Shown: piece after piece, positions 7,197-54,686 of the stretch | How positions within the stretch are numbered: position 1 is the first letter of the stretch | Layout: the number at the start of each line of letters is the position of its first letter | Virus record (IMG/VR): IMGVR_UViG_3300010413_000010 | Coordinates: 1 to 64,000 of that record | Direction: 5' to 3' (one strand) | DNA: 64,000 nucleotides | From: a virus | Made by a program: the position numbers and the translations under genes | Notes under the pieces: model-generated | What the model was told of the DNA's origin: nothing | The model's database searches: none | What the model saw: the letters and a program-made list of their open reading frames with translations, nothing else

Positions 7197-7460
7197 ATGA
7201 CGTGTGCTAATTGTGGAAGAGAATGTGGGGGAGCTCCTGCCGGATTTTACACCGACAGCCATTACTACTGTATGGCATGTGAGTCTGCAGCACTGCAGCG
7301 CCGGATGTTTGAACGTTCCTTCGGGAGACCGAAGAATTACTTCAAGTTATCTTATGAAACTCAATGGGACATCGATGATAAACTCGGTATCTTGGACTGG
7401 GACGAAAAGATTCTGACTCCAGAGGATCGAAAAAGGTTCGATGAGCATTATGATAAATAG
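7197..7460 (+). CDS. hypothetical Zn-finger protein
   Basis: CANC..CMAC; SD GGGGAG. Confidence 0.55.
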   Translation: MTCANCGRECGGAPAGFYTDSHYYCMACESAALQRRMFERSFGRPKNYFKLSYETQWDIDDKLGILDWDEKILTPEDRKRFDEHYDK

Positions 7461-7902
7461 CGAAGTAACTGGAGACCTCTTAAAGTGTGCTGAAGAAGGC
7501 CGATACGATCTGATAGTTCATGGCTGTAACTGCTTTCATACTATGGGGGCCGGGATCGCAAAGCAGATCAAAAAGCAATATCCTGGAGCGTACTTGGTGG
7601 ACATAAGTCATACCATTAAAAGTGATAGTTCCAAGCTTGGGTTTTATACTTTCTATGATACTGGGTATTTCCTAATTGTAAATGCGTACACTCAGTACGA
7701 TTTCAGAGGACGTAACAATGTTGATTACCGGGCGATCCGAACAGTGTTTGCACGGCTGAACCGGGATTACGCCGGTAAGATGGCCGGAATTCCCATGATC
7801 GGCGCCGGACTCGCCGGGGGAGATTGGGGTAGGATTGCGGCCATCATCAACCAAGTTACCCCTGATCTGAGTATAGAATTGGTGCGGTACAGGAGCGCAT
7901 GA
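7441..7902 (+). CDS. macrodomain (Appr-1-p processing / ADP-ribosylhydrolase) protein, copy 1
   Basis: GDLL, IVHGCNCFHTMGAGIA, IVNAYTQY, PMIGAGLAGGDW. Confidence 0.9.
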   Translation: MSIMINSEVTGDLLKCAEEGRYDLIVHGCNCFHTMGAGIAKQIKKQYPGAYLVDISHTIKSDSSKLGFYTFYDTGYFLIVNAYTQYDFRGRNNVDYRAIRTVFARLNRDYAGKMAGIPMIGAGLAGGDWGRIAAIINQVTPDLSIELVRYRSA

Positions 7903-9146: not shown

Positions 9147-9641
9147 ATGATTAAAAACATTATAAAAGGTGATTTAATTGAGTATGCAGAGAAGGGACGT
9201 TACGACATGATTGTGCATGGATGTAACTGTTTTCACAACATGGAAGCCGGTTTTGCGAGGCAGTTAATAACACGATATCCAGGCGTGTTCCGGGCCGACT
9301 GTGAGCAAACCAATAGCGGAGATCGAAAAAAGCTTGGGCGTCATACCAAGTTTCACACAGGGAAATTTCTAATAATTAACGCTTACACTCAATTTTCTTA
9401 TGGCGGAGAACGGGACATATACTACCCGGCACTGTCTAGAGTGTTTTATGACTTAAACCATCAGTATCCGGGTACAAAGGTGGGAATCCCGAAAATAGGG
9501 ACGGGCATAGCCGGTGGGGATTGGGACATTATTTCCGAACTAATAAATGCTACTACCTCCAACCTCGATATCGAAGTAATTGAGCCACGGGTGAAGAAGT
9601 CAAAGCTTATGGAGAGTATGGCTTCCTTAGTGGGGGGTTAA
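9147..9641 (+). CDS. macrodomain protein, copy 2 (leaderless)
   Basis: IKGDLI, IVHGCNCFHNMEAGFA, INAYTQF, PKIGTGIAGGDW. Confidence 0.9.
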   Translation: MIKNIIKGDLIEYAEKGRYDMIVHGCNCFHNMEAGFARQLITRYPGVFRADCEQTNSGDRKKLGRHTKFHTGKFLIINAYTQFSYGGERDIYYPALSRVFYDLNHQYPGTKVGIPKIGTGIAGGDWDIISELINATTSNLDIEVIEPRVKKSKLMESMASLVGG

Positions 9642-10818: not shown

Positions 10819-11307
10819 GTGAGCCTCTTTATTGATGATACAAACAGTTTTGAAAAATACTTCAAGAATGCACCGGACGGGGAACTGTCTTTTACTGCTA
10901 CAGACCAAAGAGTTGGTTATAGACTTTACACGATGGATGGCCCTTTTGGGCCTAAAACAGTCTCGGTCCACAGTCAAATTGGGGGAGAACACTTAGAAGA
11001 GTGTACCAGGGATGGACACCCGTATGTTGTCATTGTACTCTTTACGAAGATAGCTGCTGTTAAAAAAGGAGGTCTCCCTCTTGTAGAAGCTTGGGCCGCG
11101 AGAGGTGTTCGATTGAGGAAGAGTTATCCTCACATTTTATTTGTCTTTTCGAAAGATTGTTTAGTTGACGGGGCATTCATGAAAGAGGTGGGCACGGCTG
11201 TGAAAAAATACGGATACTTGATTGAACTTTACACTTCGACAACTGCGGCTGTTAGAAGAGTAAAGTCAATACGGCGTGAATGGAGGGAGTTCACCGAGGT
11301 CTCTTAA
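10819..11307 (+). CDS. STAS/SpoIIAA-like protein, tandem paralog 2
   Basis: As above; SD GGGAG. Confidence 0.45.
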   Translation: MSLFIDDTNSFEKYFKNAPDGELSFTATDQRVGYRLYTMDGPFGPKTVSVHSQIGGEHLEECTRDGHPYVVIVLFTKIAAVKKGGLPLVEAWAARGVRLRKSYPHILFVFSKDCLVDGAFMKEVGTAVKKYGYLIELYTSTTAAVRRVKSIRREWREFTEVS

Positions 11308-11316
11308 AAGCTGAGA

Positions 11317-11345
11317 TTGACGTGAGCAAAATTGTCTGGTATAAT
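11317..11345 (+). promoter_or_regulatory. strong sigma70-type promoter
   Basis: TTGACG-17-TATAAT with extended -10 TG. Confidence 0.8.
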
Positions 11346-11350
11346 TACAC

Positions 11351-11415
11351 AAAAGTCCTTTATGGCCTTTTTGTTGTTTTAACCGCCGGAGTGTTACTCT
11401 GGCGGTTATTTTTTT
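11351..11415 (+). ncRNA. candidate ~65-nt small RNA
   Basis: Promoter at 11317-11345 followed within ~35 nt by terminator TAACCGCCGGAG-TGTTA-CTCTGGCGGTTA-T7; no credible ORF. Confidence 0.6.
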
Positions 11416-11422
11416 ATTCTTC

Positions 11423-11456
11423 TTGCAATTGGAATATAATTATAATATAATTATAT
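11423..11456 (+). promoter_or_regulatory. promoter with overlapping palindromic operator for the mazE-mazF-like fusion gene
   Basis: TTGCAA-17-TATAAT; 23-bp palindrome ATATAATTATA-A-TATAATTATAT (11434-11456). Confidence 0.7.
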
Positions 11457-11479
11457 CTGAGCGAGAATGTGGAGGTATG

Positions 11480-11959
11480 ATGGAAACGTTTGAAGTAACG
11501 CTGCGTAAATGGGGAGATTCTCTAGGGATGACTCTCCCATTCTCACTACGAGAGTCCCTGGGCCTGTCGGCTGGGGACAAACTCATTCTTACCGCTACGG
11601 ATGAAGGCTTTACTGTTGCTACAGTAAAGGGTGAGTGGCTGGACGATTACAGGACAAGTGACCCGATTGTAGATGTAGATACAGGTGATTACATAAATGT
11701 CGGGGGGTCCCAGTACATGGTGTTATCAGCTAAAACCTACCATAGTCAGACTGGTCGAGCCCTTTGTGCTCCAATAGTTGGACAGGCAGGAAAGAAACCT
11801 GCACTAGCTGACGGCGCCGGACAGTTTATTCTTTTGGATGAGATTGAGACAGTTGGGCTAGGGCCAACATCTGAGAAGATTAAAAAACTAAAAATGAAGT
11901 GTAACCGAGCGGTTTTAAAGGAGGTATTAAACAGAGTTTCAGAAATCATTGCTCGGTAG
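11480..11959 (+). CDS. AbrB/MazE DNA-binding domain fused to a degenerate PemK/MazF-like domain
   Basis: LRKWGDSLGMTLP..LRESLGLSAGD (MazE); GDYINV..VLSAKTYHSQTGRALCAPI..LLDEIETV..VLKEVLNRVSEII (MazF-like); SD GGAGGT. Confidence 0.75.
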   Translation: METFEVTLRKWGDSLGMTLPFSLRESLGLSAGDKLILTATDEGFTVATVKGEWLDDYRTSDPIVDVDTGDYINVGGSQYMVLSAKTYHSQTGRALCAPIVGQAGKKPALADGAGQFILLDEIETVGLGPTSEKIKKLKMKCNRAVLKEVLNRVSEIIAR

Positions 11960-11985
11960 TACCTCATCGATAAAGGGGGAAATAA

Positions 11986-12885
11986 TTGTTTATCGAATAT
12001 ACAACAAAAAGGTTTAACAGATCGTCGTTGGAAATAATTGACCACGCCAACGAGATCATCGCTGATTATGACAATCGGGGGCTGATGCTGACGCTACGAC
12101 AGCTTTATTATCAGTTCGTCGCGCGGGGCTACATTGAGAATACGGAACGATCTTACAAGCGGATCGGGAACATCATCAGTGACGCTCGGTTGGCTGGACT
12201 GCTATCGTGGACAGCTATAGAAGATCGTACTCGAAATTTGAGTCGGGTTTCTACATGGGATTCTCCCAGCCACATCATGGGTGCGGTCATCAAGCAGTTC
12301 AAACTGGATAAGTGGGCCAACCAGCCGAACATGGTCGAGGTCTGGGTTGAGAAGGAAGCTCTCTCCGGGGTTGTCGAACAGGCCTGTCGTCCATACCAGA
12401 CTCCCTATTTTGCTTGCCGTGGCTACGTGTCACAGTCCGAAATGTGGAGAGCTGCCGAGAGGTTTTACCGGTACGCTAAAGAAGGGAAGGACGTTTACGT
12501 TCTCCACTTAGGCGACCATGACCCGTCCGGGATAGACATGACCCGCGACATTATGGACCGGCTGGAGACCTTTGAAGATTTTTCGACTTTAGTTGAGAGA
12601 GAGGCCCTGAACTTTAATCAAATCGAAGAGCTTCAGCCCCCTCCCAATCCTGCAAAGACCACTGACAGTCGTTTCAAGGATTATAAGGCGAAGTACGGGG
12701 AAGAGAGCTGGGAGCTCGATGCATTGGACCCTCAATATCTTATTGATCTCATTCAGAACTACATCGACAACCTTCTGGACCGTGACCTCTGGAATGAAGG
12801 ATTGGAACAGGAGAAAAAAGCCATTGCGACTCTGGAGGACGTTGAGGCAAGTATTGATGAAGACTGGGAGGCCGATGATGAGTGA
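11986..12885 (+). CDS. winged-helix plus TOPRIM protein (topoisomerase VI-A/Spo11-like fold)
   Basis: LTLRQLYYQFV, VEVWVEKEAL, LHLGDHDPSGIDM, WELDAL. Confidence 0.75.
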   Translation: MFIEYTTKRFNRSSLEIIDHANEIIADYDNRGLMLTLRQLYYQFVARGYIENTERSYKRIGNIISDARLAGLLSWTAIEDRTRNLSRVSTWDSPSHIMGAVIKQFKLDKWANQPNMVEVWVEKEALSGVVEQACRPYQTPYFACRGYVSQSEMWRAAERFYRYAKEGKDVYVLHLGDHDPSGIDMTRDIMDRLETFEDFSTLVEREALNFNQIEELQPPPNPAKTTDSRFKDYKAKYGEESWELDALDPQYLIDLIQNYIDNLLDRDLWNEGLEQEKKAIATLEDVEASIDEDWEADDE

Positions 12886-53939: not shown

Positions 53940-53968
53940 TTGACACCCGCAACGTTACAGGTTATATT
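53940..53968 (+). promoter_or_regulatory. higBA promoter
   Basis: TTGACA-17-TATATT. Confidence 0.7.
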
Positions 53969-54000
53969 TACCTTATCGCTGCTGCGAATAAGGAGGCTTA

Positions 54001-54285
54001 ATGATTGGAAACTTCAGCCATAAAGGTCTGAAGGCTTTCTATGAAAACAGTTCAGTTAAGGGGGTCGCCCCGGAGCATGTAGGTCGGATTGATAGGATTT
54101 TATCGATCTTAGATTCCGCGACAAGCCTACATGACATTCAAAGCTTCCAGAGTTTAGGGTGTCATAGATTGCAAAAGGGAGAACTGAGAGGTTTTTACGC
54201 TGTAAAAGTAACTGGGAGTTGGCGGATTGTCTTCCGGTTCGAACACGGGAAAGCCATCGACGTGGGGTACGTGCAGTACCACTGA
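54001..54285 (+). CDS. higB: HigB/RelE-family toxin
   Basis: MI..F.HKGLK.FY, HRL..G.L.G.YAVKVTG.WRIVFRFE.G.A.DV.Y..YH. Confidence 0.92.
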   Translation: MIGNFSHKGLKAFYENSSVKGVAPEHVGRIDRILSILDSATSLHDIQSFQSLGCHRLQKGELRGFYAVKVTGSWRIVFRFEHGKAIDVGYVQYH

Positions 54286-54377
54286 TCCGATTGGGAGAAC
54301 GGCGCGATCCGGGGCTTCGGCCCCGGAGTTCTTATCCCGACTGAACTCTATAAGTAAAACTAATTAGGGGGTAAAAC

Positions 54378-54686
54378 ATGGCTAGGAGGAAACCGGAGCA
54401 TCCCGGTACTATTTTTAGGGAAGAGTTCCTTCAACCGCTGAAGATAACCGTCACTTCAGCTGCCGAACAATTGGGAGTTACACGTAAGACTCTCAGTGAA
54501 TTTCTGAATGAGAGGGCTGGCTGCTCTCCCGATATGGCTGTGCGTGTTGGACAGGCTACTGGGACTTCACCCCAGATGTGGCTGAACATGCAAACAAATC
54601 TTGACCTTTGGGTCTCTAGTCAAAAAGAAATAAATGTGATTCCTTTTGTACCGCATAATGAAAGTAGCATTATGTTAGAGGGATGA
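54378..54686 (+). CDS. higA: HigA antitoxin (Xre HTH)
   Basis: HPGTIFREEFL.PL, AAEQLGVTRKTLS, GTSPQMWLNMQ. Confidence 0.92.
   Translation: MARRKPEHPGTIFREEFLQPLKITVTSAAEQLGVTRKTLSEFLNERAGCSPDMAVRVGQATGTSPQMWLNMQTNLDLWVSSQKEINVIPFVPHNESSIMLEG

Follow-up and report, generated by a model that had tools for sequence, protein, structure and literature searches.

A phage-plasmid gene that joins a MazE DNA-binding domain to a degenerate MazF fold: a candidate single-chain repressor

Type II toxin-antitoxin modules consist of two genes, whereas the MazE-MazF-like unit described here occupies a single open reading frame in a viral genome. What does such a protein do if, as a first-pass annotation from the sequence alone proposed, it is a MazE fused in frame to an inactive MazF, acting either as a fixed mimic of a repressor complex or as a decoy against the host's own MazF? 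The window analyzed covers the opening 64 kb of an IMG/VR record of 98,634 bp and carries terminase, portal-side, and tail genes. A plasmid-type maintenance region lies outside the window and includes a tyrosine recombinase gene (80888-81796, minus strand), a gene for a 404-aa protein without an assigned family, and a gene for a ParA-like ATPase at ~84.7 to 85.2 kb.

The open reading frame originally given as 11423-11959 is present and lies on the plus strand, but its mechanical start at 11423 is the TTG of the -35 box in the promoter that serves this gene. Translation almost certainly begins at ATG 11480 or 11477, ahead of which lies a GGAGG at 11471-11475. The public gene call is 159 aa, and the product is ~160 aa overall; residue numbers below follow the 160-aa form (P0001) that starts at the alternative ATG 11477. 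The features of the locus are as follows.

11380-11408 plus a T run to 11416, plus strand: intrinsic terminator with a 13-pair stem and a 3-nt loop (terminator scan)
11423-11451, plus strand: predicted sigma-70-type promoter, TTGCAA-17-TATAAT (10/12; promoter/terminator scan)
11434-11456, no strand assigned: candidate operator, a perfect palindrome (11+1+11) that spans the spacer and -10 box
11471-11475, plus strand: Shine-Dalgarno sequence GGAGG, 4 nt ahead of ATG 11480 (direct reading)
11480-11959, plus strand: predicted coding sequence of 159 aa plus the stop codon (11957-11959)
11504-11638, plus strand: MazE/AbrB swapped-hairpin DNA-binding domain, aa 10-54 (PF04014; the W, G, S, and P of WG.S....P are present)
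11639-11683, plus strand: short acidic linker, aa 55-69, an apparent MazE tail remnant joined to the MazF N terminus
11684-11956, plus strand: degenerate MazF/PemK-fold domain, aa ~62/70-160 (alignments, hidden Markov model [HMM], and structural models)

The strong terminator at 11380-11416 is predicted to end a short upstream transcription unit and to shield the gene from transcription entering from upstream. The terminator scan placed none between 11959 and the next gene at 11986, so the promoter of the fusion gene probably also drives the downstream genes, which are, in order, a "DNA topoisomerase"-like gene (phrog_6247; starting at 11986; E 3e-112), a gene for a DUF6011 protein, several small open reading frames, and the small terminase gene. 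The G+C content near the fusion gene (0.42 to 0.45) equals that of its neighbors. The short upstream unit (11317-11416) has a near-consensus promoter with a TG element, TTGACG-17-TATAAT, followed ~30 nt on by the terminator at 11380-11408, and the predicted RNA is ~60 nt long. Within it, the unpaired 12-mer CCTTTTTGTTGT (11366-11377) has a perfect complement in codons 6 to 9 of the topoisomerase-like gene (12001-12012), and one further occurrence of the 12-mer lies on the minus strand at genome position 96824-96835. A search of 11200-12100 against Rfam gave nothing above the gathering score, and the short RNA had sub-threshold matches only (suhB/mmgR and rteR). The transcript could be a small RNA with targets, or the 12-mer could be a DNA motif.

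The N-terminal half is readily recognized. Residues 10 to 54 match the PF04014 MazE_antitoxin model (E 8.7e-9; 35.6 bits against a cutoff of 24.7, and 37.7 bits in a six-frame search), bearing out the AbrB/MazE domain read by eye, with weaker matches to AbrB-type NCBIfam models and to MazE/AbrB structures; PHROGs contributed nothing beyond a weak match to this domain. The W-G-x-S...P positions are invariant in all 13 sequences compared (the fusion protein, E. coli MazE, and 11 phage-borne MazEs), and the Arg of the "VRIP" strand that is conserved in MazE is a Thr in the fusion protein. A functional MazE wraps MazF with its C-terminal tail, and the fusion protein has lost most of that tail: the toxin-binding motif ITPEN.H...G.E.W is absent, and only ~15 mostly acidic residues separate the AbrB domain from the MazF fold in the alignment.

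The C-terminal half was recognized by none of the curated libraries (Pfam, PHROGs, and NCBIfam). The Pfam PemK model (PF02452) gave no match in the fusion protein even at E of ≤10 and found no PemK gene in the whole record, so the likeness to MazF is remote rather than at the level of the family. Four independent lines of sequence and model evidence nevertheless identify this half as a predicted divergent MazF/PemK fold, an SH3-like barrel plus a C-terminal helix. With E. coli K-12 MazF as the target, BLASTP aligned aa 76-127 with MazF 27-82 (E 3e-5; 29% identity), hhalign against 22 MazFs gave a probability of 68% (E 4.9e-5), and a local HMM of 53 MazFs scored the protein at 18.2 bits, compared with 13.0 for the best of 2000 shuffles, in an alignment that runs colinear with MazF from its position 32 through the entire C-terminal helix. 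A MAFFT alignment, in which identity to any MazF is 20 to 28%, gave the same register, so that the register first drawn by eye has been reproduced by BLASTP, hhalign, the HMM, and MAFFT. One alignment, which combined the whole protein with both MazE and MazF sequences, misaligned the MazF N termini and was left out.

Structural modeling agrees with this assignment. The fourth line of evidence, the single-sequence model from the ESM Atlas (pLDDT 0.73), has a TM score of 0.77 to a MazF cluster over residues 63-160, and a feature search of the Atlas also yields PemK clusters, which we take as a lead only. AlphaFold2 without an alignment reached a pLDDT of 35.6; with the MazF alignment it reached 86 (86.4), and since that model leans on the alignment it is corroboration rather than proof. 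Foldseek matched the alignment-guided model best to E. coli MazF in the Protein Data Bank (3nfc, 5co7, and 5cqy; TM 0.75 to 0.81), with further matches to D. radiodurans MazF and Kid. Complex prediction with two copies of the C-terminal domain scored 0.37 against a mark of 0.42, a value that counts neither for nor against a homodimer.

Although the scaffold appears to be retained, the residues with which E. coli MazF binds and cuts RNA have been lost, D76 excepted. In E. coli MazF numbering, and with conservation counted among 24 reference MazFs, the S1-S2 loop including E24 (23/24) is deleted, leaving a gap of 11 residues that corresponds to the substrate-binding loop noted as missing at the outset, and the KGYPFEV motif is also partly deleted. 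The supposed replacement of the catalytic Arg and Thr is likewise seen: R29 (24/24) is S78, and T52 (23/24) is V101. H28 (His in 10/24 and Arg in 8/24) has become G77, Q77 (22/24) has become E122, K79 (Lys in 17/24 and Arg in 4/24) has become E124, and R86 (24/24) has become K134, while D76 (23/24) is kept as D121. RNase activity has likely been lost with them. Catalytic residues "roam" within the MazF family and differ between subfamilies (PMC3879964), so inactivity is a strong inference only.

The second part of the argument concerns the DNA ahead of the gene. The 23-bp palindrome at 11434-11456, proposed as a site of autorepression, is indeed perfect (11+1+11) and lies over the spacer and the -10 box TATAAT at 11446-11451; shuffles of the window contained no match to it within 3 mismatches. 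Across the whole 98.6-kb genome it occurs in three places (11434-11456, 81815-81837, and 94248-94270), the second and third outside the 64-kb window, and 100 order-3 Markov simulations of the genome produced 0 copies, even at three mismatches. At the second site the same palindrome lies on the opposite strand, with its arms extended to 12+1+12, in front of the tyrosine recombinase gene (PF00589; E 1.9e-15), the only one in the record and close to the gene for the ParA-like ATPase. The layout there is a TTGACT, a 17-nt spacer, a TATAAT within the palindrome, an AGGAGG, and an ATG 23 nt past the -10 box. The first two sites have 24 bases in common, placed alike with respect to the -35 box, -10 box, Shine-Dalgarno sequence, and ATG, and their flanks are unrelated. 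An operator that is kept in the same register in two promoters while the flanks diverge is the mark of one repressor that acts in trans on both. The third site has 2 mismatches and lies ~40 bp upstream of the -35 box of the good promoter of a DUF6876 gene (TTGACA-17-TATAGT), a position that is not one of classical occlusion.

Several smaller features lie close to these sites. Adjoining the third site is the start of a 66-aa open reading frame (genome 94043-94243, minus strand) that has a GGAGG, is hydrophobic in its N-terminal half, and matches no family; its product could be a small membrane protein controlled in the same way. In the -10 region of the short-RNA promoter, 11335-11347 is a partial copy of an operator half-site (TATAATTAC compared with TATAATTAT). 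Together with the operator's right arm (11448-11460) it makes up an 85% inverted repeat of 13 nt, and it may be a weak extra binding site. Near the second site, the interval that separates the recombinase promoter from the 3' end of the 404-aa gene holds three direct repeats of TACC[AT]TTTGT[CT]GTA (genome 81882-81895, 81904-81917, and 82005-82018). These are similar to the 12-mer CCTTTTTGTTGT and may be binding sites for the recombinase or for a replication protein. A scan of IMG/VR for the exact palindrome returned six matches, in genomes of ~23% GC or giant-virus bins and inside TATAATTATAA tandem runs, and we judged them to be chance.

Which protein would bind the palindrome? A genome-wide scan for regulators with three Pfam families (PF04014, HTH_3, and RHH_1) matched only the fusion gene and HigA, whose own operator is different and contains GC. 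The palindrome was assigned to the fusion protein because of the autoregulatory layout and because the three-family scan offered no other candidate but HigA. The HigB/HigA pair lies at 54001-54686; the 53941-54686 interval holds an intact HigB (PF05015; E 1.3e-14), a HigA (HTH_3), their own promoter (TTGACA...TATATT), and an imperfect palindrome (53945-53962), and the pair looks like a working addiction or defense module.

Precedent for the assignment comes from parD of plasmid R1, where the perfect, AT-rich 18-bp palindrome bound by Kis takes in the -10 box and where Kid makes no contact with DNA and yet greatly strengthens the binding of Kis (PMC1865072). [quoted passage not shown] Like Kis-Kid and E. 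coli MazE-MazF, the protein described here combines an AbrB-type antitoxin DNA-binding domain with a partner of the MazF/Kid fold, and at 11434-11456 the palindrome overlaps the -10 box of its own gene just as a perfect AT-rich palindrome includes the -10 box of the parD module (PMC1865072). We infer from this layout and from the family precedent that the fusion protein binds the palindrome, and we propose as a further likeness that its toxin fold, in the manner of those systems (PMC1865072, PMC4333400), aids DNA binding without touching DNA. The systems differ in that two genes are present there and one polypeptide here, in that the toxin active site and S1-S2 loop are gone here and the antitoxin tail is reduced to ~10 to 15 residues, and in that copies of the operator occur here at two other loci of the genome. 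The fusion also fixes the stoichiometry at 1:1, so that, unlike in Kis-Kid and MazEF, there would be no conditional cooperativity.

The domain composition, the lost active-site residues, the three copies of the operator, and the promoter register common to two of the three are best explained, with a probability that we put at roughly 55%, by a single-chain, nuclease-dead repressor of the MazE-MazF/Kis-Kid type that has a built-in corepressor and controls a small phage-plasmid regulon. Such a protein would have originated by fusion of a mazEF/kis-kid-type operon, after which the lineage seen here would have lost both the neutralizing tail and the nuclease site. The N-terminal AbrB/MazE domain would dimerize and bind the 23-bp AT-rich palindrome. 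The C-terminal domain, a MazF fold without the RNA-binding loop or the catalytic Arg and Thr, would be the built-in corepressor and would supply dimerization, stabilization, and avidity, much as MazE is aided by free MazF and Kis by free Kid. The protein would then repress its own promoter and with it the cotranscribed genes from the topoisomerase-like gene at 11986 onward, would repress the promoter of the genome's only tyrosine recombinase gene in the plasmid-type maintenance region, and would also bind the third site, upstream of the DUF6876 gene. With its fixed 1:1 stoichiometry it would be a constitutive, self-limiting repressor that keeps both its own operon and the recombinase gene in check. 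Some antitoxins, MqsA for example, regulate genes outside the operon that encodes them. Like these, the fusion protein is a DNA-binding protein derived from a toxin-antitoxin system with operator-like palindromes at unrelated promoters; however, MqsA-type antitoxins still pair with an active toxin that has its own gene, whereas the toxin fold described here is part of the same chain and apparently dead. Of the two functions suggested in the first-pass annotation, the fixed mimic of a repressor complex has gained from the two further operator copies, one of them in identical register before the tyrosine recombinase gene, because copies that share a register look like the targets of a trans-acting repressor with a regulon; the anti-toxin decoy that it emphasized is the weaker half.

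The protein appears to stand alone. A word-indexed search of 5.8 billion proteins returned only the fusion protein itself, an exhaustive phmmer search of 1.84 billion representative proteins returned no homolog (the other matches being repeat or tandem-AbrB proteins), and the same fusion, for which a search in other phages had been proposed, was found neither by tblastn against 50,697 phages nor in IMG/VR, where the protein matched only itself. Since there is no homolog, conservation and covariation cannot be used for the fusion protein. One related phage locus, found via a neighboring gene, has no MazE-like gene in the syntenic slot, and all 35 viral mazF loci that we examined are two-gene operons, none of them fused (0/35). 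The same related phage argues against the downstream topoisomerase-like gene as a cognate toxin, since phrog_6247 occurs there without a MazE-like partner. Rare singleton MazE-MazF "fusions" do occur in public databases (P0014, P0128, and P0129; 187 to 193 aa; PF04014 plus PF02452), but these are frameshift read-throughs of ordinary operons. Unlike the fusion described here, they have a MazE tail that is out of frame or scrambled, a full loop, and intact R29 and T52. They do indicate that an operon fusion of this kind arises easily. In the literature we found only engineered MazE-linker-MazF fusions and no natural nuclease-dead MazE-MazF single chain with outside operators. The parts and the principle of the toxin as a corepressor are thus already known; it is the natural, streamlined, nuclease-dead single chain with outside operators that we did not find described.

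It could be argued that a singleton without homologs is simply the decaying remnant of a fused mazEF addiction module that has no function in trans, the palindrome being bound instead by an unrecognized phage repressor, by the tyrosine recombinase, or by a host factor. We regard this as unlikely. Frameshift fusions of mazE and mazF do arise, as P0014, P0128, and P0129 illustrate, but those differ in their scrambled tails and intact active sites. Here the open reading frame is intact and has a near-consensus promoter and a Shine-Dalgarno sequence, and the fold-determining positions are kept along the whole MazF domain while those contacting RNA are specifically replaced. The scan for regulators covered three families, so another repressor could own the palindrome, and the second site does adjoin the recombinase gene. 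Recombination core sites normally have an asymmetric spacer of 6 to 8 bp, however, and the palindrome has none; recombination between its three near-identical copies would invite rearrangements of 70 kb. The palindrome is therefore unlikely to be a core site of the recombinase, and its identical -35/-10 register in two promoters counts against this role as well as against a relic.

A role against host defense also appears unlikely. MazF acts as a dimer, and a dead MazF domain might heterodimerize with host MazF, or the protein might occupy host mazEF operators or soak up MazE, and so disarm abortive infection by MazEF. A MazF fold kept without its active site would suit such a decoy, as would the fact that the gene is an accessory insertion missing from the syntenic slot of the related phage. 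There is also a precedent in phage phi3T, which encodes two MazF inhibitors, AimX and the MazE-like YosL (bioRxiv 10.1101/2023.04.27.537455). Those phage proteins, also related to MazEF, neutralize host MazF by an antitoxin-type interaction, whereas the fusion protein is without the required tail and has a MazF fold in its place; the MazF-inhibiting segment of MazE (residues 68-82 in E. coli) is missing from it. No cognate MazF can be named; identity to any MazF is only 20 to 28%; the record has no PemK gene; and all three operator copies are in the phage genome itself, where they would be superfluous for a decoy directed at the host. The decoy is compatible with a repressor role and leaves that function standing, and it has no specific support of its own.

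It is very unlikely that the protein is still a weapon, that is, a self-neutralized fused toxin-antitoxin in the style of CapRel or EzeT with other catalytic residues or another target, serving plasmid addiction or superinfection exclusion: CcdB shares the MazF fold and works without an RNase site, D76 is retained, and the element is plasmid-like and already has HigBA, but of the residues assigned to catalysis or RNA contact in E. coli MazF only D76 survives, the S1-S2 loop has been deleted in full, the change of K79 and Q77 to Glu is unfavorable for RNA binding, and PADLOC gave no match. Fused toxin-antitoxin proteins are known (PMC13423816, PMC4826407), and the variation of catalytic residues between MazF subfamilies (PMC3879964) leaves room for an altered site. 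CapRel and EzeT likewise carry toxin-type and antitoxin-type domains in one chain on a mobile element; however, theirs is a working toxin that a trigger sets free, whereas the fusion protein has other residues at the catalytic positions and has from the antitoxin the DNA-binding half rather than the neutralizing half.

The single-chain repressor thus remains our preferred reading, although the case rests on a single sequence without relatives. Type II toxins moonlight as corepressors, and here this secondary role has apparently become the sole one, the fold having been kept, the chemistry discarded, and the remainder joined to the DNA-binding half of the antitoxin. If true, this would be a clear natural example of a selfish addiction module turned into an ordinary transcription factor. 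It would also provide a natural single-chain MazE-MazF scaffold for structures of DNA binding strengthened by a toxin fold and would reveal a regulatory link in a phage-plasmid between the recombinase and a late-side operon. A bolder version, which we consider improbable, is that a toxin-antitoxin complex was domesticated whole, with MazE2-MazF2 frozen in one nuclease-dead chain that regulates the phage-plasmid by linking the maintenance recombinase to the operon leading into the packaging genes, and that perhaps also blunts host MazEF by subunit mixing.

The early region of the window also encodes two Macro-domain proteins (7441-7902 and 9147-9641), with Pfam E values of 9.8e-5 and 1.5e-3 that are near or below the cutoff. 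These are possible counter-defense genes that would act by removing ADP-ribose.
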